This document shows positions 55,123-64,000 of a DNA stretch of 64,000 nt, one piece after another. How positions within the stretch are numbered: the stretch's first letter is position 1; each line of letters starts with the position of its first letter. The translations under genes and the position numbers were made by a program. Location: the NCBI GenBank assembly GCA_964436125.1, contig CAYTBT010000003.1, positions 68,878 to 132,877 on the forward strand, given 5' to 3'. The DNA comes from an uncultured Saprospiraceae bacterium. Its GTDB lineage: Bacteria > Bacteroidota > Bacteroidia > Chitinophagales > Saprospiraceae. Below the pieces are notes generated by a model. The model worked only from the letters and a program-made list of their open reading frames with translations, did no database searches and had not been told where the DNA came from.

Positions 55123-55674
55123 ATGAAGTCATATATTTTAATGGTAGCTTTTACCGCTACCACATTTGTTGCTTGTGGCAACAATCAAAAATCAAACGAA
55201 ACAGCGAATGTTGTGGAGCAAGTTTCAACAGAAACACAATATCAAAATGCAGGAATAGAGGAAGTAATCACTTATTATCTGAGTTTAAAAAATGCATTGA
55301 CATCCGATAATTCAGAAAAAGCTGCGAAAGCAGGCGGTAAGCTAAAAACTGCCTTGGTCAATCTTGGGAATCAAGAAATGACCAAAAAGCAACAAAAAGC
55401 TTATGACGACATTGCAGAAGCAGCGGAAGAAAATGCAGAGCATATTTCAGAAAACGGTGGAAAAATTGACCATCAGCGTGAGCACTTTCAGAGTTTGAGC
55501 GAAGGCATATATATCCTTGTCAAAGTCTTTGGAACTTCACAAACGCTGTACAAAGATTATTGCCCGATGAAAGAATCCATTTGGTTAAGCAAGACTAAGG
55601 ATATAAAAAATCCTTACTATGGCCAAAGTATGCTCTCTTGCGGAACGGTAAAAGAAACCATCAGCAAGGAATAA
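55123..55674 (+). CDS. DUF3347 domain lipoprotein (metal-resistance associated)
   Basis: Lipobox FVAC|G and the C-terminal pattern YCPM...WLS....I.NPYYG..ML.CG, recalled as the DUF3347 signature. Confidence 0.7.
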   Translation: MKSYILMVAFTATTFVACGNNQKSNETANVVEQVSTETQYQNAGIEEVITYYLSLKNALTSDNSEKAAKAGGKLKTALVNLGNQEMTKKQQKAYDDIAEAAEENAEHISENGGKIDHQREHFQSLSEGIYILVKVFGTSQTLYKDYCPMKESIWLSKTKDIKNPYYGQSMLSCGTVKETISKE

Positions 55675-55684
55675 TACCGGGAAA

Positions 55685-56176
55685 ATGAACAAACGTAAAA
55701 CCATTATCCTGATAGTGGTGGTTGCTTTTATCGTTATACAGTTTTTCAGACCTGACCGGAACAATTCCGGTCAGGTTTATGAAAAAGCTATAACGCAACT
55801 CTACCCCATTCCGGATAACGTCAATCTCATATTACAGCAGTCCTGCGTGAATTGCCATTCCAACAATACGGAATACCCTTGGTATGCCAAGGTGCAACCT
55901 GTTGGTTGGTTCCTGAACTACCATATCCGAAATGCAAAAGAGCAGTTAAACTTAGATGAATTTGCGGAATATTCTGAAAGGAAACGCATCAACAAATTAC
56001 GGTCAATAAGAGACCAGGTAAAGGACGGCGAAATGCCATTGTGGTCTTATACCCTGATGCACGAAGAAGCCAAATTATCCGAAACAGAAAAATCGTTGTT
56101 AGTCGATTGGCTGAATACAACGATAGACAGCCTTAAAACAATACAGCGAAACAAATATTTAAAATACTTAAAATGA
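55685..56176 (+). CDS. Haem-binding domain protein (CxxCH)
   Basis: An N-terminal TM helix, then CVNCHSNNTEYPWYAKVQPVGW, which is the pattern of the Haem_bd family. Confidence 0.7.
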   Translation: MNKRKTIILIVVVAFIVIQFFRPDRNNSGQVYEKAITQLYPIPDNVNLILQQSCVNCHSNNTEYPWYAKVQPVGWFLNYHIRNAKEQLNLDEFAEYSERKRINKLRSIRDQVKDGEMPLWSYTLMHEEAKLSETEKSLLVDWLNTTIDSLKTIQRNKYLKYLK

Positions 56177-58707
56177 AATATATAAAAATTATATCGACGT
56201 CAATTCTAATTTTGTTCATAGGCTATTCGGCTTTTGCGCAAGAATATGTTCCCGAGCAATTTAATCACGGGAACAATAAAACATACGAACCCTTCACAAA
56301 TTTTGCGGCACCTGTTGCCGAACCAACCCCATTGAACGCCCCTGTAAAATGCCCAATTTCCAATTTGGAAGAAAACGTTGCGACCAAAACCATAAAGGCA
56401 GCCAATGCGGGAATCCACTTTCCGAAAGGAACAAAAGGCGTGAAAACGGTACGTTATGATTTATATGTAACAGATACTATCGTAAATTACACAGGCAAAG
56501 AAAGGCACGGGATTGCCGTCAATGGCACTATTCCTGCGCCAACCTTGGTATTTACTGTTGGCGACACAGCGGTTATTTACGTGCATAACCGTTCCGACAA
56601 ACCAAGTTCTATTCATTGGCACGGTGTACAGTTGCAAAACCGTTTTGACGGTGTTCCTTACCTCACCCAACAACCTATACCGCCACATACTACCCATATT
56701 TACAAATTTGTCGTAGTGCAGTCAGGCACGTATTGGTATCACAGCCATTTTAAACTGCGAGAACAACTTGGCCTTTATGGTGCGCTTATATTCAACAAAA
56801 GAAATGAACCGGATATCCCTACTATTCCCATAGTTTTGAGCGAATGGAGCGATATAAAACCCAAACAAATCAACCGAATGTTGCACACAGGCAACGATTG
56901 GTTTGGCATAAAAAAAGGAAGCACTCAAAGCTATTGGGAAGCGATTAAAGCAGGAAAATTAGGCGTAAAGTTCGTCAACGAGTGGAAAAGAATGGAAGCA
57001 ATGGATGTGAGCGATGTGTACTATGACCGTTTTCTTTTGAACGGAAAAACTTCACAAACATTCTCTCAATTTAAAGCGGGCGAAAAAGTACGATTGCGGG
57101 TTGTGAACGGTGGCGCATCGTCCTATTTTTGGCTAACCTACAGCGGTGGCGAGATGATGGTGGTAGCCAATGACGGCAATGATGTCGTTCCGGTAATGGT
57201 TGACCGATTAATTATGGGGCCATCGGAAACCTACGATGTGGTTGTTACCATTCCCGAGAATATGCAATACGAATTTTTGGCAACGCCCGAAGACCGTACG
57301 GGTTCGGCTTCCCTTTGGTTGGGAAGCGGTATGAAAATGCCTGCAAAGGAACTGCCGCCTTTGAAATTATTTGAAGGAATGCAGATGATGAATCAGATGA
57401 TGAAAATGAATGGCGATATGAAACCGATGGGAATGGATATGACCTTACAGAAAATGGATATGAATTCTGTTATGTACCCTGAAATGGATAATAGTGGTAT
57501 GCATAATATGGAAAATATGGACGGAATGGAAGGGATGAATAATTCTCATCAACATAACAAAGAAACAACTGAAACTTATGTTTGTCCAATGCACCCCGAA
57601 GTAACATCCGACAAACCCGGTAAATGCCCGAAATGTGGAATGAAGTTGGTTAAAAAAGATGCGGATGGAAATATGGAAAATATGGATATGTCATCAGACA
57701 AAATAACGACATTGAATTATAATATGCTTAAAGCTACCCACAAAACCACATTGCCCGAAGGTCCTTGGAAAACTTTACATTTTGAATTGACAGGCAATAT
57801 GAACCGTTATGTTTGGTCTATTAACGGAAAAACCGTTGCAGAAACCGATAAAATCAAAATAAAACAAGGCGAAAACCTGCGTATTATTTTACACAACAAC
57901 ACGATGATGCGCCACCCGATGCACCTGCACGGACACGACTTTCGGTTGGTCAATCAATATGACGAATATTCACCAATGAAAAACGTGGTGGATATTATGC
58001 CAATGGAAACCGATACATTGGAATTTCACGCATCGGAAAGCGGAGATTGGTTTTTCCATTGCCATATTTTATATCATATGATGAGTGGTATGGGCAGGGT
58101 GTTCAGTTACCAAAACAGCCCAAACAACCCGGAAATCCCTAACCCACAAAAAGCGTACAAAAAACTACAAAGGGAAGCAAGTATGTATCATTTTATGTTT
58201 CAAAATGATTTTGCCACCAACGGAAATGACGGTATGATGATGTATGCCAATACACGTTGGGCATTTCAGGCAGAATGGCGGTTGGGATATAACGACCACC
58301 ACGGCTATGAAGTGGAAACACATTTTGGAAGGTACTTTGGCAAAAAGCAATGGATATTTCCTTATGTAGGCATTGATTGGCGTTATCGCAAAAATTCCGC
58401 ACAAGAAGAAAACCTTTTTGGACAAACAAGTACAAAAGACGACCGTAAAGTTTTTCACGTGGGTATTCAATATACTTTACCGTGGCTAATCGTTTTGGAT
58501 GCAAGTATAGACCACACAGGAAACGTAAGGGTAGAGTTGGAACGTGATGATATTCCGTTGACGGCAAGGACAAGAGCAATGTTTATGGTAAACACAGACA
58601 AAGAATGGATGATTGGTGGAAGGTATATTTTAACCCGATATTTTTCACTTTCAACTCATTATGACAGTGATATGGGATTTGGGGCAGGAATAACATTTAC
58701 CTACTAA
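56173..58707 (+). CDS. Multicopper oxidase (CopA-like) with a Met-rich insert, a CPxH...CPxCG metal-binding module and a C-terminal CopB-like outer-membrane domain
   Basis: The four MCO copper motifs are present: HWHG, WYHSH, HPMHLHGH and HCHILYHMMSGM. The Met-rich tract is at 57379-57545 and YVCPMHPEVTSDKPGKCPKCGM at 57576-57650. The last ~175 aa (from ~58183) resemble CopB/PcoB (WIFPYVGIDWRY...) and end ...GAGITFTY. Confidence 0.85.
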   Translation: MKYIKIISTSILILFIGYSAFAQEYVPEQFNHGNNKTYEPFTNFAAPVAEPTPLNAPVKCPISNLEENVATKTIKAANAGIHFPKGTKGVKTVRYDLYVTDTIVNYTGKERHGIAVNGTIPAPTLVFTVGDTAVIYVHNRSDKPSSIHWHGVQLQNRFDGVPYLTQQPIPPHTTHIYKFVVVQSGTYWYHSHFKLREQLGLYGALIFNKRNEPDIPTIPIVLSEWSDIKPKQINRMLHTGNDWFGIKKGSTQSYWEAIKAGKLGVKFVNEWKRMEAMDVSDVYYDRFLLNGKTSQTFSQFKAGEKVRLRVVNGGASSYFWLTYSGGEMMVVANDGNDVVPVMVDRLIMGPSETYDVVVTIPENMQYEFLATPEDRTGSASLWLGSGMKMPAKELPPLKLFEGMQMMNQMMKMNGDMKPMGMDMTLQKMDMNSVMYPEMDNSGMHNMENMDGMEGMNNSHQHNKETTETYVCPMHPEVTSDKPGKCPKCGMKLVKKDADGNMENMDMSSDKITTLNYNMLKATHKTTLPEGPWKTLHFELTGNMNRYVWSINGKTVAETDKIKIKQGENLRIILHNNTMMRHPMHLHGHDFRLVNQYDEYSPMKNVVDIMPMETDTLEFHASESGDWFFHCHILYHMMSGMGRVFSYQNSPNNPEIPNPQKAYKKLQREASMYHFMFQNDFATNGNDGMMMYANTRWAFQAEWRLGYNDHHGYEVETHFGRYFGKKQWIFPYVGIDWRYRKNSAQEENLFGQTSTKDDRKVFHVGIQYTLPWLIVLDASIDHTGNVRVELERDDIPLTARTRAMFMVNTDKEWMIGGRYILTRYFSLSTHYDSDMGFGAGITFTY

Positions 58708-59300: not shown

Positions 59301-59609
59301 ATGAAGACTTTGGGAACCATATTAAAATTAGCAAGGAAAGAAAGAAATCTAATCCTTAGGAAAGTTGCAGCAGAAGTGGACATCGACCAATCTTTGATTA
59401 GTAAATTCGAAAAGGACGAACGAAAGCCCACCGAAGAACAACTAAAACGACTTGCTACATTTTATAATATCCCCGAAAAAGAATTAACCATAAATTGGTA
59501 TTCAGATAAAATAGCAGATGAATTAAAATATGCTGAATCAACAGCAGAAATATTAAAGGTAGCAGAGGAAAAAATCCAATATTTTAAAGCAAGAGAAAAT
59601 GGAAAATAA
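59301..59609 (+). CDS. XRE-family HTH protein (candidate R-M controller, C protein)
   Basis: 102 aa with HTH LGTILKLARKERNLILRKVAAEVDIDQSLISKFEKDER. Its stop overlaps the methyltransferase start by 11 nt. Confidence 0.75.
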   Translation: MKTLGTILKLARKERNLILRKVAAEVDIDQSLISKFEKDERKPTEEQLKRLATFYNIPEKELTINWYSDKIADELKYAESTAEILKVAEEKIQYFKARENGK

Positions 59610-60843
59610 AGAATTAAGAGTAGCGGAACTATTTGCAGGAGTTGGAGGTTTTCGACTTGGTTTAGAAAAGCATAACTATAAAGTAATTTGGAGTAACCAA
59701 TGGGAGCCAGCCACGAAAAAGCAACACGCTTCAATGGTTTATGAAGCACGATTTGGCAAAGAAAATCATTCTAATGTAGACATTGCCAAAGTTCCAACGG
59801 GCGAAATACCAGATCACGATCTGCTTTGCGGAGGGTTTCCTTGCCAAGATTATTCTGTAGCCACGACATTACATAATTCTAAGGGCTTAGAAGGAAAAAA
59901 AGGCGTTTTATGGTGGTCTATACATAGGATTCTTAGTGAGAAAAAGAACAAACCAAAATATTTGTTCCTAGAAAATGTAGATCGTTTATTAAAATCACCT
60001 GCGAGCCAACGAGGTAGGGATTTTGCGATAATGCTAAAAAGTCTAAATCAATTAGGTTATGCGGTAGAATGGCGTGTTGTCAACGCAGCTGAATACGGAA
60101 TGCCGCAACGAAGAAGGCGTACTTTTATCCTTGGTTACCATAAATCAACGGAAATATATAAGCGAATACAAGAAACAAAAGCGTTAGATTGGCTTTTAAG
60201 AGAAGGAACAATAGCTAATGCTTTCCAAGTACATAATGAACCTGCTTTATTTTGTCCAAAATTTAAATTGAAAGGAGATTTGGTAGAAATCACCAATAAT
60301 TTCAATAAAAACGGAAAGAAATCCCCCTTTGAAAATACAGGCTTGATGATAAACGAGGTGGTTTCTTCATTAAAAACCACACCAAAATATGGCGGCTCAC
60401 AAACCGTTTTGAAAGATGTTTTACAAAATGGTGAGGTAACCAAAGAATTTTTTATTCCAGAAAGTGACAAAGAAAAATGGGAATATTTGAAAGGAGCAAA
60501 ATCTTTTGAACGTGTATCAAAAAACGGACACAAATACAAGTATTCGGAAGGTAGTATGACATATCCTGATGCATTAGATAGACCTTCTCGAACCATTATT
60601 ACGGGAGAAGGCGGTAAATCACCTTCCCGATTTAAACACGTTGTAAAAACAAATCGTGGTTTACGCCGATTAACGCCTGTGGAATTGGAGCGGTTAAATA
60701 TGTTTCCGGACGACCACACCAAATTAGAGGGAATCACAGATAACAAAAGAGCTTTCTTTATGGGGAATGCTTTAGTTGTTGGAGTAATTGAGAAACTAGG
60801 AAAAGAACTTTATAACCAAATTTTTAATTTTGAATATGCCTGA
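59599..60843 (+). CDS. DNA (cytosine-5)-methyltransferase, M.Sau3AI-like
   Basis: m5C motifs I (ELFAGVGGF), IV (GGFPCQDYS), VI (ENV), VIII (QRRRR) and X (GNAL). At 414 aa, the overall pattern (NQWEP, GKKGVLWW, ENVDRLLKSPASQRGRDFA, VEWRVVNAAEYG) matches my recollection of M.Sau3AI. Confidence 0.9.
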   Translation: MENKELRVAELFAGVGGFRLGLEKHNYKVIWSNQWEPATKKQHASMVYEARFGKENHSNVDIAKVPTGEIPDHDLLCGGFPCQDYSVATTLHNSKGLEGKKGVLWWSIHRILSEKKNKPKYLFLENVDRLLKSPASQRGRDFAIMLKSLNQLGYAVEWRVVNAAEYGMPQRRRRTFILGYHKSTEIYKRIQETKALDWLLREGTIANAFQVHNEPALFCPKFKLKGDLVEITNNFNKNGKKSPFENTGLMINEVVSSLKTTPKYGGSQTVLKDVLQNGEVTKEFFIPESDKEKWEYLKGAKSFERVSKNGHKYKYSEGSMTYPDALDRPSRTIITGEGGKSPSRFKHVVKTNRGLRRLTPVELERLNMFPDDHTKLEGITDNKRAFFMGNALVVGVIEKLGKELYNQIFNFEYA

Positions 60844-62224
60844 ATATGACATTAATTCAGCAGAATCGATAATTAATTTTGCTAAAAAACTAAAAAACAA
60901 AACCCTTCACGACGTTTGTGGAGCCAAAATCGAAGAACACGGCTATACGGGAAAAGGACATTTTGGGCAAATATTGGAAAAATTCTATTTTGGTTACGAG
61001 CCAAATTCTGATGCTCAAGCTGACTTCCCTGAAGCCGGTTTGGAACTTAAATCGAGTCCATTAAAGACCTTGAAAAATGGTGATTTCCGTTCTAAAGAAA
61101 GATTGGTTCTTAACATTATCAACTATTTAGAAGTACACAAAGAAAGTTTTGAGGATAGCTCTTTTTGGAAAAAGAATGCACATTTGTTACTTATTTTCTA
61201 CCTGTGGAAGAAAGAAATAAATGCTGTAGATTATCTCATAAAATTAGTGGACGATTGGAAGTACCCGAATGAAGATTTAAAAATCATCAAACACGATTGG
61301 GAAACGATTAATCAAAAGATAAAAGCAGGTAAAGCCCACGAAATATCAGAAGGAGATACTTTTTATCTTGGAGCTTGTACAAAAGGGTCAACAGCAGCGA
61401 AATCATTAAGAGAGCAACCTTTCAGCGACACTAAAGCAAAACAAAGAGCATATTCACTTAAACAAGGTTATGTTAACCATATTATTGCTCAAATAGCTAA
61501 AGGAGAAAGCGGAACTTATGGTAAAATAGTTGATAGACCTGAAATTCTAGACTCAGAAACTATTGAAGATATTATCTTATCTAAATTCAGACCTTTTTAC
61601 GGCAAGACAGCACAACAAATAGAGACAGATTTTAAACTTAATTTGAATCAAAAAGCTAAAAGTTATTTTGCCAATTTGACTAAATCAATTTTAGGAATAG
61701 GCTTAGATAAAAGAATTGAAGAATTTGAGAAAGCCGATATAATCGTCAAGACAATTCGATTAAAAGAAAATGATTTGCCAAAAGAGGATATTTCGTTCCC
61801 TACATTCAAATACAAGGACTTAATTGAAACAGATTGGGAAGAATCAGATTTTAAAAATATTTTAGAAAGTAAATTTTTCTTTGTTTTCTACCAGTTTGAG
61901 AATAAAAATCTTATTCTAAAAAAAGTACGTTTTTGGAATATGCCTCAATCAGATATTAAAATTGCTAAAAAAGTATGGGTAACAACAAAAAGGAATATTG
62001 AACAAGGTAGAATAGTTGAACGAGTTACAGAAAATGGCAGACGAATAACTCATTTTCCTAAGAAAACCGAAAATAAGGTCAGCCACGTTCGACCACACGC
62101 AAGAAATTCTAAAGACACTTACCCATTACCTATAAAGGATAAAACAACAGGAACAACTGAATATACAAAACACTGTTTTTGGTTGAATGCAAGTTACGTT
62201 AGGGATAAGATATACCAAAAATGA
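60830..62224 (+). CDS. Type II restriction endonuclease, Sau3AI/MutH-like
   Basis: 464 aa. The N-terminal motif GKGHFGQILEKFYFGYEPNSDAQADFPEAGLELKSSPLK parallels the MutH/Sau3AI catalytic region (KG..G..LE..LG.....DF...G.ELK..P). It overlaps the MTase stop by 14 nt. Confidence 0.75.
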   Translation: MNMPEYDINSAESIINFAKKLKNKTLHDVCGAKIEEHGYTGKGHFGQILEKFYFGYEPNSDAQADFPEAGLELKSSPLKTLKNGDFRSKERLVLNIINYLEVHKESFEDSSFWKKNAHLLLIFYLWKKEINAVDYLIKLVDDWKYPNEDLKIIKHDWETINQKIKAGKAHEISEGDTFYLGACTKGSTAAKSLREQPFSDTKAKQRAYSLKQGYVNHIIAQIAKGESGTYGKIVDRPEILDSETIEDIILSKFRPFYGKTAQQIETDFKLNLNQKAKSYFANLTKSILGIGLDKRIEEFEKADIIVKTIRLKENDLPKEDISFPTFKYKDLIETDWEESDFKNILESKFFFVFYQFENKNLILKKVRFWNMPQSDIKIAKKVWVTTKRNIEQGRIVERVTENGRRITHFPKKTENKVSHVRPHARNSKDTYPLPIKDKTTGTTEYTKHCFWLNASYVRDKIYQK

Positions 62225-63161
62225 AACTAAAGGAAACCGCAACGGCAACACAACAACTAGCGTTTCGTTGCGCCCGCAGGGTGAACAATGAAACGCCCTG
62301 TTGGACGGAACCTCTACAAGGTGACTCCTATGGAATTATCAATATGTACCTTTGGGGATTTAAGCGGAATAGATACCGCTTGTGAAGAGGAATAAGAGGA
62401 TAGACTGTCTTAAAACCGGATTTTTATCCTTATTTCATCTCCCGATAGCTATCAGGAAAGCATACCTCCCCTTACCCATTCTACGAGGTCTGCAGAACAG
62501 GGACAGCTGAACGAAGCGATAAATATGCCTGTGGTGGTCCTCTTACTCCAAAAGTGTGGATGAGTATTAAATTTCCGACTTTACAACACGGACATTTATG
62601 GAGACGAGTCTTTATCTCTTGGCTGGGTCTTTCTACACCGAGTAATTTTTGAAGTCTCTGGAGTTTCCCTCGCTTCCAACTACTACTCAATATGCCGTAA
62701 TGCCTTATACGGACGAATCGATATGGAAGGATATGTTGTGCAAAACGACGGACAAATTCTTCATTGCTTAGCTGCATTTCCTTTTTCCGTGACCCTTGCC
62801 GATAATCCTTATAGGTAAAAGTGACATGGTCAGCTGTCACATCCCTTATTCGGTGGTTACTGATGGCAACTTTGTGGCTATATCTGCCTAAGTATTCGAT
62901 TACTTGAGCCGGTCCTCCAAATGGTCGCTTGGCATATACTACCCATTCCTTCGTAAACAAGCTATCCAATAAAGCCTGATCTTGTATCTTGTGTTTCCGA
63001 AGCTCTGCGACATATTTTGCTCGGAATACTTTACTCATTGCTTTCACGGAAAATAAATACTTGCTACTTCTGACTTGCCTTTCCCATCTATTATGCTTGT
63101 TCATTCCTCCTCCCGGAACAATGCAATGTAAGTGGGGATGTAAACTCAAGTTCTGTCCCCA

Positions 63162-63210
63162 CCACGTTAGAAATAAACCAATGAAATAATCACATAGATT
63201 TCTAACGTGG
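63162..63210. mobile_element. 49-bp miniature (internally deleted) copy of the GIY-YIG element, flanked by CCCA
   Basis: The sequence is ccacgttagaaataaaccaatgaaataat-cacatag-atttctaacgtgg. Its first 29 nt and last 13 nt are identical to the ends of the 365-bp element, and the 13-bp TIRs are perfect. Confidence 0.8.
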
Positions 63211-63214
63211 CCCA

Positions 63215-63579
63215 CCACGTTAGAAATAAACCAATGAAATAATATCCCATCCCCTTAACAAGAAGTTAGTTTAACAATCGATTGAAAAGTAATACATTTA
63301 CTATATGAAGGATTTAAAACAATATTTCGTGTATGTACTGAATTCGCAGAAAGATGGTTCATGGTATATCGGATATACTCAAAATATTAAAGAGAGACTT
63401 AATCAACATAATCACGGAGAATCCTATTATACAAAACGTAAAAAACCTTGGGATTTATTATACTATGAAGTTTCTTTCAATAAATATGATGCCATTGCAA
63501 GAGAGAAATATCTAAAAAGTGGAATGGGACGAAGGTATTTAAAGAATCGTTTAAAGAATCAATTAAATTTCTAACGTGG
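63215..63579. mobile_element. 365-bp TIR-bounded element whose only gene encodes a GIY-YIG nuclease
   Basis: Perfect 13-bp terminal inverted repeats CCACGTTAGAAAT / ATTTCTAACGTGG. CCCA is present on both sides (63211-63214 and 63580-63583) and also at 63158-63161. Confidence 0.8.
63305..63574 (+). CDS. GIY-YIG nuclease family protein (URI-domain only, YhbQ-like size)
   Basis: 89 aa. YFVYVLNSQKDGSWYIGYTQNIKERLNQHN contains the GIY(x10)YIG pattern, with conserved R and N/E downstream. The stop codon lies inside the right TIR. Confidence 0.85.
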   Translation: MKDLKQYFVYVLNSQKDGSWYIGYTQNIKERLNQHNHGESYYTKRKKPWDLLYYEVSFNKYDAIAREKYLKSGMGRRYLKNRLKNQLNF

Positions 63580-64000
63580 CCCATGTATGCAATAAAGCTA
63601 CCATCCCCAGTTGTACTCCTTCGGTATGACCAAATTGATTCAGTGTTTGCCAGGCAGCTTGGAACAGGCTACTGTAGATTATCCTCGGCTGAAATAGCGC
63701 AAGTTGATTTAGTTCGCCGGGCAAAGTGAATACCAAGTGATAATACGTACACGGCAATAAATCCCTCGCACGCTTTTCTATCCATTCCACCCGTTTATGC
63801 CCTTGGCATTTTGGGCAATGTCTATTGCGACAGCTATTGTAACTTATTCGGATGTTCCCGCATGTATCACAGGCATCAATATGCCCTCCCAGTGCTTTTG
63901 TCCGGCAATGTTTTAAGGCACGTAGCGTTTTTTCTTGATGTATATTGAGATGCAATCCCGATATATCAACTTGCCGTAGTACATCACTTACTTCCCACTG

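Follow-up and report, generated by a model that had tools for sequence, protein, structure and literature searches.

In the last kilobase of a 64-kb stretch of contig CAYTBT010000003.1, from an uncultured Saprospiraceae bacterium (hereinafter the window; coordinates throughout are positions in this stretch), a gene for an IS91-family transposase is interrupted by a short insert. We interpret this insert as a minimal mobile DNA element, of a type not recognised before, that is present twice: as a 365-bp version bearing a single open reading frame (ORF) and as a 49-bp version with an internal deletion. Both appear to have landed in one 4-bp target, CCCA, upstream of the HUH motif of the transposase, making the element a parasite inside a parasite. 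The ORF codes for a small GIY-YIG nuclease, and comparison of the element with its relatives leads us to consider it probable that this nuclease itself mobilises the element by binding the termini and breaking the DNA 4 nt apart, the host finishing the reaction.

The insert (63158-63583; Table 1) consists of CCCA, the 49-bp unit, CCCA, the 365-bp unit and CCCA. The 13-mer CCACGTTAGAAAT forms the left ends of both units (63162-74 and 63215-27) and its reverse complement ATTTCTAACGTGG forms their right ends (63198-210 and 63567-79), the 13-nt inverted termini being perfect in both. Within the 64-kb window neither this 13-mer nor the family core CNCGTTAGA has a match beyond the four termini of the insert, and exactly this 49-bp unit, with its CCA tips, was sighted only here. 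On the left the two units have CCCA and 29 nt in common at 100% identity, and on the right about 27 nt at ~85% identity. Being short and devoid of an ORF, with the same terminal inverted repeats (TIRs) and CCCA as its 365-bp partner and an internal deletion, the 49-bp unit answers to the description of a miniature inverted-repeat transposable element (MITE); its single-stranded DNA (ssDNA) forms a 13-bp hairpin without mismatches (dG -12.1 kcal/mol, z -5.4). The sole ORF of the insert (63305-63574, plus strand, 89 amino acids) ends with a TAA stop (63572-74) that falls within the right terminus, which supplies the last two codons and the stop, AAT TTC TAA.

Deletion of 63162-63583 yields one uninterrupted minus-strand frame (...GMVALLHTWGQNLSLHPHLHC...), whose product reads ...GMVALLHTW/GQNLSLHPHLHC..., the slash marking the split ...LHTW/GQNLSLHPHLH. 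The joined protein matches the Pfam domains Zn_Tnp_IS91 (E 5.3e-29) and Y2_Tnp (E 3.9e-57), and the host gene is assigned to the IS91 family by this zinc-binding N-terminal domain together with the Y2 HUH domain and its HUH motif, HPHLH, directly before which the insertion point lies. The gene extends past the end of the window, where the start codon of this copy is situated; at locus L001 the transposase ORF continues upstream as MQPQWEV.... An earlier sequence-only reading of this DNA had given the same layout, which proved correct to the base, including the perfect 13-bp TIRs at all four positions, the GIY-YIG ORF as the only one with its stop inside a TIR, and the IS91 frame restored at LHTW/GQ. 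It had also derived the short unit from 29 nt of the left end and 13 nt of the right end of the long one; the former figure holds, and the latter is too low, given the likeness over about 27 nt. The exact window locus is also contained in public sequencing reads (SRR8648371, SRR8648372).

The nuclease has 585 detectable homologues of 86-89 amino acids, mostly in Bacteroidota, and in every context fetched for proteins at least 65% identical to it, the nuclease gene splits an IS91-family transposase gene in two and runs antisense to it. The sister elements span 294-303 bp, as against 365 bp in the window, where the leader is longer. In the lineages examined first, the 13-nt termini are identical to those of the window, CCCA stands on both sides and the insertion lies in the same IS91 codon. 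The hosts with identical termini and CCCA come from independent assemblies, and their transposases are only 40-77% identical to that of the window. The layout is far beyond chance; the same termini, CCCA and codon recur in independent assemblies and diverged hosts. Removal of the element and one CCCA from the IS91-resident relatives restores ...HTWGQ.L.LHPH.H.... Intact IS91-family transposases of ~365 amino acids are abundant (68-79% identical to the repaired window protein) and show the same junction, LHTWGQ being contiguous in 120 out of the 120 intact homologues listed. Their junction DNA is CAC ACT TGG GGG CAG and, in three Epilithonimonas vandammei copies, CAC ACG TGG GGA CAG (CACACTTGGGGGCAG / CACACGTGGGGACAG); the empty target DNA reads ...CATACATGGGGACAGAAC... 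and the empty IS91 site ...ACATGGGGACAG....

Filled and empty alleles can be compared directly in a sister lineage, where L018, L019 and L028 are near-isogenic filled counterparts of the empty L231 (91-98% nucleotide identity). The alignment of L018 with L231 breaks into two blocks, q108-1537 = s114-1543 and q1835-2724 = s1540-2430 (95.0% and 93.8% identity). In the empty allele these blocks share exactly 4 nt, TGGG, and in the filled one the 297-bp element lies between them; L019 and L028 show the same TGGG overlap against L231. The empty site has a single copy of this tetranucleotide (CCCA on the other strand), and a filled site has one to either side of the insert. The 4-bp repeat is thus a true target-site duplication (TSD), and the layout in the window is what two insertions with 4-bp TSDs would leave. 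The repaired hosts of L018, L019 and L028 are full-length ORFs (366 amino acids), 94-95% identical to the intact transposase P0225 in the first two cases and 98% in the third. Insertion in the window lineage is strongly site-specific, striking the same codon of IS91-family genes, and not random. On the transposase strand the empty target, ACN TGG/GG, resembles the tip of the terminus, ACG TGG; this is only a resemblance, and it may contribute to site choice.

Other IS91-resident copies add some variety to this picture. In L029 an element with window-type termini (1119-1413) sits elsewhere in an IS91-family gene, in the region of the C-terminal CPxC zinc finger (...LTYGHW/). It directly follows a TGG codon, its flanks GCCA/TCCA form a 3-of-4 repeat, and the catalytic-motif site of the same gene (HTWSQKLLYHPHLH) is uninterrupted. 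In L022, from a metagenome-assembled genome (MAG) of Owenweeksia, a second, 63-bp ORF-less unit (2881-2943) lies ~25 bp from the GIY-YIG element in the same IS91 gene; its inner terminus bases differ (CCCCGTTAGAAGC...GCTTCTAACGGGG) and its flanks, CTTG and TAAA, do not form a repeat. A tyrosine-recombinase gene typical of this IS91 subgroup is often found upstream of the invaded transposase. In L228-L231 and L012-L021 this Phage_integrase-type gene is immediately upstream and overlaps the transposase start by ~17-22 nt, and Epilithonimonas vandammei CP034161 carries three such IS91 copies, each with recombinase and transposase, at different loci.

Among ten IS91-resident elements the identity of the nucleases and that of the host transposases are uncorrelated (r = 0.02, 45 pairs): elements that are 91% identical reside in hosts only 43% identical, and hosts 88-97% identical harbour elements only 73% identical. 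Because element and host divergence are uncoupled in this manner, the elements have invaded diverged IS91 lineages repeatedly and independently at one site, and we reject a single ancient insertion inherited along with IS91. The nuclease ORF is under purifying selection (dN/dS 0.07-0.16), with synonymous sites saturated in most of the between-lineage comparisons (pS 0.75-0.9). The 26 terminus bases of the CCA-tipped lineage are invariant despite this saturation, which, along with the purifying selection on the ORF, means that both the ends and the protein are functional.

Over residues 6-72 the 89-residue protein matches the Pfam GIY-YIG domain (PF01541; E 1.3e-16) and scores 61 bits where 22.6 would suffice, and its AlphaFold model is confident (pLDDT 93.6). 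Foldseek recovers SLX1 as the best match (TM-score 0.67, root-mean-square deviation 1.7-2.6 A, ~32% identity; for 6sei 1.7 A, 32% and probability 1.0) and the UPF0213 protein BH0048 (1zg2) at E 3.6e-4, and returns UvrC (1yd5) and I-TevI (1ln0) only at E > 1. Profile comparison with the PDB likewise recovers 1zg2 (1e-11), 1ywl (6e-8) and SLX1 (1e-5). On the strength of the modelled fold, the nuclease belongs to the Slx1/UPF0213 branch, to which it is closer than to the UvrC and I-TevI lineage. Across 49 diverse members Y21, G23, R31, H35 and E67 are invariant and Y10 is at least 90% conserved, with the spacing seen in UvrC and I-TevI; we take these six residues to be the catalytic set of the GIY-YIG fold, with roles as in established members. 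N81 in the C-terminal helix is also invariant. A C-terminal Asn has been said to mark the UvrC+ lineage (PMC1564403), and N81 may or may not correspond to it in structure.

Searches against NCBIfam, PADLOC and PHROGs gave only weak domain-level matches and no named family, defence system or phage family. A scan of the region upstream of the ORF with a sigma-70 promoter tool that lacks Bacteroidota promoters found two sites against 2.7 expected. We also considered a structured RNA or intron, splicing and ribosomal bypass, and rejected all of these: the Rfam scan of 62000-64000 returned nothing beyond a noise match (snR44, E 0.52), the ORF is antisense to its host, the insert has stops in the host frame, and insert lengths with repeats of 301, 307, 369 and 422 nt are not consistently in frame.

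The element is not confined to IS91. A protein-profile scan of one genome per species, in which the termini were not used, gave 501 confirmed relatives. The best 80 of these, which were analysed, represent Bacteroidota, Patescibacteria, Gammaproteobacteria, Omnitrophota, Planctomycetota and Nitrospirota, among other phyla. A full search with a hidden Markov model (HMM) retrieved 4,384 clusters (50% identity) at E<=1e-10. The ORF-bearing elements are 274-365 bp long, roughly 280 bp being typical, and their nucleases have 86-97 amino acids. Matching inverted repeats bracket the ORF in 76 of the 80 loci. The family terminus is exactly 13 nt, (C/T)C(C/A)-CGTTAGA-NNN: positions 4-10 (CGTTAGA) are invariant, while at the variable positions 1, 3, 11, 12 and 13 the two arms match in 93-99% of the elements, as against 48-74% expected, and complementarity drops to chance from position 15 inward. 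With element ends set 3 nt outside CGTTA, exact 4-bp repeats flank 36 of the 80 ORF-bearing elements (TGAA in 19, CCCA in 6, others in the remainder), where ~0.3 would be expected by chance. Copies are present at multiple unrelated loci, in different host genes of many genomes, including two diverged copies in one MAG. Three of the features by which Class II transposons are recognised, namely TIRs at the exact boundaries, a TSD of fixed length relative to the empty site and occurrence at unrelated loci, are thus seen in these elements. Some of the hits (P0244, P0249, P0258 and P0295) are much longer, at 205-655 amino acids, or match in two places. In these, gene calling has probably run on through tandem elements or joined the nuclease to the host gene at a start-codon insertion, which would be a pitfall for annotation.

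ORF-less derivatives are likewise widespread. Scanning of metagenomes for CGTTAGAAAT-N10-40-ATTTCTAACG, with the outer 3 nt and the flanks left unspecified, located ORF-less units of 37-66 bp with family termini in at least 120 stretches. Of the 83 units analysed, 70 have CCC/GGG or TCC/GGA as their outer triplet and 54 are flanked by exact 4-bp repeats, again against ~0.3 by chance. One 40-bp unit recurs at no fewer than 12 unrelated loci. In the 40-bp and 61-bp ORF-less families TAAA always has one orientation relative to the asymmetric loop (at least 14 versus 0), reading TTTA when reversed (L110, L130, L131, L140, L144, L160, L172, L174 and others; also L107, L109, L112 and L164), a clue that insertion may be intrinsically asymmetric. 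A single family can also carry other matched 4-mers, such as CAAA and TTAA. In 1.14 Mb of sampled DNA, matching pairs of termini span up to 100 bp in 158 cases, 101-250 bp in 19, 251-320 bp in 90, 321-420 bp in 5 and 423 bp in one; within this sample there is no pair beyond 423 bp and no cargo other than the GIY-YIG ORF. Arrays whose units have one 4-mer in common occur at L038, L069, L078, L142 (at least three units) and L173, as would be expected if each insertion leaves a usable target on either side. We also asked whether the TAAA-flanked ORF-less units target stop codons, an idea that found no support: only 3-4 of ~28 close a long ORF, compared with ~0.7 per control position.

These surveys covered the sequence and structure comparisons that the sequence-only reading had proposed, namely a search for other terminus pairs with their flanking 4-mers and the presence or absence of the ORF, a comparison with intact IS91 genes, and profile and structure searches of the protein. 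What it had named as grounds for abandoning its view (no other copies, copies with unconserved ends or flanks, or intact IS91 homologues without the contiguous junction) is contradicted at each point. Its description of the 49-bp unit as a non-autonomous derivative finds support in the abundance of similar units, many with 4-bp repeats and some in multiple copies, and the tandem layout of the window has parallels in the arrays at five other loci.

A second lineage makes use of start codons. In elements with a TGNN repeat, the base before the repeat is usually A, meaning that insertion has occurred at A/TGNN. The ATG or GTG of the host and the next 2 bases read in frame into the left terminus, ATG AAT CCC GTT AGA GA. 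being translated as MNPVRD..., and the nuclease ORF, here 93-97 codons long, has no start codon of its own. At the right end, ...TCT AAC GGG A/TG AA..., the TAA of the nuclease precedes by 4 nt a rebuilt ATG, composed of the last base of the element and the duplicated TGNN; the rebuilt start is GTG when the tip is C...G. The host start reads into the nuclease ORF at 20 of the 80 loci, a rebuilt start is followed by at least 100 codons of host ORF at 26, and both halves of this architecture are present at 17. The host genes include those for DnaJ, CTP synthase (PyrG), SecA, phosphoglucomutase (PGM) and epimerases, and these are authentic host N-termini, since the Pfam domains start at residues 2-7. 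ORF-less TGAA and TGAG units also occupy start codons. The IS91-resident lineage of the window differs in having its own ATG 20-90 nt inside the element and in lying antisense to the host gene. In three gammaproteobacterial MAGs (L064, L100, L103), where an element sits at the start codon of an orthologous gene, elements and hosts have diverged in parallel. The flanking 4-mers read TGAA on both sides in two of the genomes and TGGA on both sides in the third, in each case matching the second codon of the host. These matched 4-mers fit a host-derived duplication and also hint at site turnover; a concerted change of both copies is unexplained under a purely inherited insertion.

In the mechanism that we favour, the nuclease would attach to the 10 conserved outermost nucleotides of either terminus and break the DNA, with a 4-nt stagger, both where element and flank meet and at the target. 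A host ligase or repair would then complete the joining, a division of labour suggested by the fact that GIY-YIG enzymes have no known strand transfer. Its substrate may be a terminus hairpin or cruciform in place of the linear duplex, which is plausible given the perfect pairing of the termini and the structure-specific activity of the closest relatives. Gene-less derivatives need only the termini. The window copy of IS91 would be inactivated unless the insert is excised precisely, which is possible in principle. We favour the nuclease as the working part of the element over its being cargo because terminus pairs bracket this ORF or nothing, the termini overlap the ends of the ORF, and the ORF is under purifying selection. 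No recognised transposase class (DDE, HUH, serine, tyrosine or Cas1) is encoded, the only ORF being the GIY-YIG gene. A more far-reaching formulation, to which we give even chances, is that the elements make up a new class of autonomous DNA transposon, by far the smallest known (274-365 bp), in which an SLX1-like GIY-YIG transposase acts on 13-nt termini to give 4-bp duplications, with lineages that have adopted safe-harbour strategies (the HUH codon region of IS91; start codons). Here the terminus hairpin would undergo structure-specific cleavage, with rejoining either by the host or by chemistry new to the fold.

Several points weigh against mobilisation by the nuclease. The case for mobility comes from comparative genomics alone. 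GIY-YIG enzymes (I-TevI, UvrC, Hpy188I, SLX1) are hydrolytic nucleases for which we know of no strand transfer or covalent intermediate, and a 4-nt-staggered cut of a target that lacks the termini is unexplained. Perfect 4-bp repeats accompany only 45% of the ORF-bearing elements and 65% of the ORF-less units. The fixed orientation of the ORF-less families despite symmetric termini is not predicted by simple symmetric cut-and-paste. L031-L036 and L023 are at the same LHT/GQ position with only a TG..TG repeat and 2-4 variable nt; a uniform excision would not restore the Trp codon in these, although the frames of both transposase halves are open. The junctions, seen in L031, L032, L033, L035, L036 and L023 (mostly CCC-tipped), read ACN-(2-4 nt)-TG/element/TG(C/T)G-GGN, and no clean TSD could be resolved when one was sought at those of L031-L036. 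Since the 1.14-Mb sample was selected by way of the ORF or of the short units, it is a biased control for other cargo. For the source genome a single locus is visible in the 64-kb window, and annotated plasmids and phages gave no tblastn match at E<=1e-8.

The hairpin-forming ends also suit a single-stranded peel-and-paste route analogous to that of IS200/IS605, a competitor that we regard as rather unlikely. Here the termini would pair into a stem on the lagging-strand template or other ssDNA and so draw the flanking 4-mers together. The SLX1-like nuclease would cut at the foot of this stem, and the strand thus released, carrying one 4-mer, would insert beside an identical 4-mer; the flanking repeat would then consist of the target copy and the carried copy, with no fill-in. 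Such a route is in keeping with the nearest structural relatives being branched-DNA nucleases, with the perfect complementarity and co-variation of the termini and their stable hairpin, and with the retention of the stem alone in ORF-less units. It would also account for the orientation that ORF-less families keep to a non-palindromic 4-mer and for 4-mers that are largely lineage-specific (TAAA, TGAA, CCCA). However, the matched variant 4-mers (CAAA and TTAA; TGAA versus TGGA at orthologous genes) track the local target, and a hydrolytic nuclease, unlike the HUH enzymes, provides no energy for rejoining ssDNA. The arms also encode N- and C-terminal residues of the protein, and complementarity is hence not the sole constraint on them. 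The present evidence does not distinguish an ssDNA from a double-stranded substrate.

The coupling of termini and ORF across phyla, in 76 of 80 loci and with no other gene between matching termini, is hard to reconcile with the doubtful proposal that the element is non-autonomous. On that account an unlinked transposase or host recombinase recognises the 13-nt termini, and the GIY-YIG protein is helper cargo that cuts empty sites to favour filled ones or serves as an addiction or competition factor. Trans-mobilisation certainly occurs, since ORF-less units far outnumber ORF-bearing ones in the 1.14-Mb sample; moreover, GIY-YIG enzymes have no known transposase activity, the terminus-4 nt-terminus junction resembles a recombinase core site, and the IS91-family hosts carry an adjacent tyrosine recombinase. 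Yet the cores of tyrosine and serine recombinases have spacers of 6-8 bp and 2 bp, respectively, which a 4-bp spacer does not fit, and the start-codon lineage lies beside unrelated housekeeping genes with no recombinase nearby. The ends of the ORF are built into the termini, and a helper role sits poorly with the strong purifying selection on the ORF and the absolute conservation of the termini.

Stop-free transposase halves in most invaded lineages, including the window, and full-length repaired ORFs raise the improbable prospect of a reversible intervening sequence, an on/off switch in which precise excision, by the nuclease or by slippage between CCCA copies across the hairpin, restores the transposase. 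Direct repeats flanking a hairpin are a textbook substrate for precise deletion, as in the excision of Tn10 and Tn5. Open halves are equally explained by recent invasion, though, and some hosts have decayed (L003 and L028, with stops or deletions), the L031-L036 junctions could not be restored by uniform excision and no excision product was seen. Most improbable of all is a free-standing homing endonuclease gene that cuts empty IS91 alleles and is copied in by double-strand break repair, the TIRs and repeat being incidental: the classic homing fold, the single conserved site in a multi-copy gene, the spread between diverged hosts, the existence of empty alleles and the likeness of ACNTGG/GG to the ACGTGG tip all recall it, but homing creates no target duplication such as that demonstrated here, neither requires nor conserves inverted termini, and gives rise neither to tandem arrays nor to hairpin units that lack the gene and occur, each with 4-bp repeats of its own, at hundreds of unrelated loci, and the protein is SLX1-like and not I-TevI-like in fold, without the DNA-binding extension of I-TevI-type enzymes. 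Trans-mobilisation by an unlinked enzyme, homing and the switch thus each fail on at least one demonstrated feature or have no support.

Table 1. Features of the insert and of the interrupted transposase gene
Feature	Coordinates	Strand	Evidence
IS91-family transposase, C-terminal part (from the Gly of LHTW/GQ via HPHLH to the stop)	62481..63158	-	ORF list; Pfam Y2_Tnp; tblastn q102-350
CCCA copy 1 (TGGG on the transposase strand: Trp codon and first Gly base)	63158..63161	+	
49-bp ORF-less unit: 13-nt inverted termini and 23-nt loop; deletion derivative of the long unit	63162..63210	+	
CCCA copy 2, common to both units (right terminus - 4 nt - left terminus)	63211..63214	+	
365-bp ORF-bearing element: left terminus 63215-27, 77-nt leader, GIY-YIG ORF, right terminus 63567-79	63215..63579	+	
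SLX1/UPF0213-type GIY-YIG nuclease gene, 89 amino acids	63305..63574	+	Pfam, AlphaFold, fold search, dN/dS
CCCA copy 3	63580..63583	+	
IS91-family transposase, N-terminal part (zinc-binding domain ... LLHTW)	63581..64000	-	Pfam Zn_Tnp_IS91; tblastn q1-126

The window is chromosomal, carrying the genes for IF-2 and phosphoglycerate mutase. Adjoining the interrupted IS91 copy is a probable type II restriction-modification pair (59599-62224), comprising a C-5 cytosine DNA methylase (59599-60843), the end of which overlaps a 464-residue MutH/Sau3AI-family endonuclease (60830-62224). Before these lies a copper-resistance and metal cluster (55123-58707) with a DUF3347 protein, a protein with a haem-binding domain and an 844-residue multicopper oxidase in which a heavy-metal-binding domain is embedded. 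The combination of metal cluster, restriction-modification pair and IS91 suggests that this end of the window is an acquired island.

If the nuclease does drive mobility, it would represent a new enzyme class beside the DDE, HUH, serine, tyrosine and Cas1 transposases, and the lower size limit for an autonomous mobile element would fall to ~280 bp, compared with ~700 bp for IS200. The start-codon lineage is a striking example of minimal-harm parasitism: lacking a promoter, ribosome-binding site and start of its own, it takes those of the host and returns a rebuilt start. It matters for gene calling, as the host genes and nucleases are easily mis-started or fused, and offers a natural system for the study of termination-reinitiation coupling. 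The IS91 lineage shows an arms race between a transposon and its own transposon, fought over a catalytic motif that cannot mutate. An 89-residue protein that recognises a 13-bp site, as we infer, would be an attractive scaffold for compact DNA tools. Our reading would also overturn the assumption that the thousands of small bacterial GIY-YIG/UPF0213 proteins are vertically inherited repair enzymes (PMC1564403); a good many would turn out to lie at the core of a selfish element.

Neither bacterial GIY-YIG elements with TIRs and TSDs nor the repeat sequence turned up in the full-text literature searched, to which subscription journals, ISfinder and Repbase did not belong. Set against known systems, the architecture of a TIR/TSD element with its MITE is familiar; the size, the start-codon strategy and, should the nuclease drive mobility, the enzyme class are not. 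MITEs and their TIR/TSD parents (IS630/Tc1-mariner-type elements; Correia, RUP and Nezha) likewise combine TIRs, a TSD of fixed length, derivatives consisting of ends only, dispersal and nested or tandem insertions. However, in all known parents a DDE or other recognised transposase, with ~250 amino acids or more, is encoded by an element of at least ~700 bp, whereas here the sole gene is a GIY-YIG gene of 86-97 codons in an element of 274-365 bp, with an unusually specific target, either one IS91 codon or start codons. The IS200/IS605 group offers parallels in its very small size, hairpin-forming ends, tetranucleotide target, orientation-specific insertion and hairpin-only derivatives akin to REP/RAYT. 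In contrast, these elements employ an HUH Y1 transposase and have subterminal hairpins in place of TIRs and no target duplication; the window element has neither TnpA nor TnpB, and it does possess TIRs and a TSD.

The Penelope-like retroelements, to our knowledge the only established transposable elements with a GIY-YIG integration endonuclease, also generate short TSDs, but they are eukaryotic, encode a reverse transcriptase and move by target-primed reverse transcription, in contrast to the bacterial, DNA-only elements described here, which lack a reverse transcriptase. Inteins and group I introns similarly settle in the most conserved stretch of a host gene, as the present element does beside the HUH motif, where loss of the target is costly; unlike them, it has no splicing machinery, its ORF is antisense to the host gene, and it breaks the host frame both by stops and by its out-of-frame length. 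With the GIY-YIG homing endonucleases (I-TevI, I-BmoI and the phage Seg proteins) the nuclease has in common its catalytic fold, a conserved site in a gene and the coexistence of empty and filled alleles. In those enzymes, long extensions bind the DNA and recognition is confined to the empty allele; their spread depends on recombinational repair and leaves behind neither TIRs nor a TSD, whereas here a domain-only SLX1-like protein is associated with conserved TIRs, a demonstrated TSD and MITE-like derivatives.

The closest relatives remain SLX1, which cuts branched and hairpin-like DNA, and the UPF0213 proteins (BH0048, 1zg2; EF2693, 1ywl; the class of Escherichia coli YhbQ), which have the same minimal, stand-alone GIY-YIG domain. 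In the 2006 survey of the superfamily the prokaryotic Slx1-like proteins were presumed to be vertically inherited repair enzymes, and the selfish GIY-YIG members were derived from the UvrC+ lineage and not from Slx1 (PMC1564403). Unlike these proteins, regarded as vertically inherited enzymes of repair and maintenance, the Slx1-like protein described here is the sole gene of what we interpret as a mobile element.

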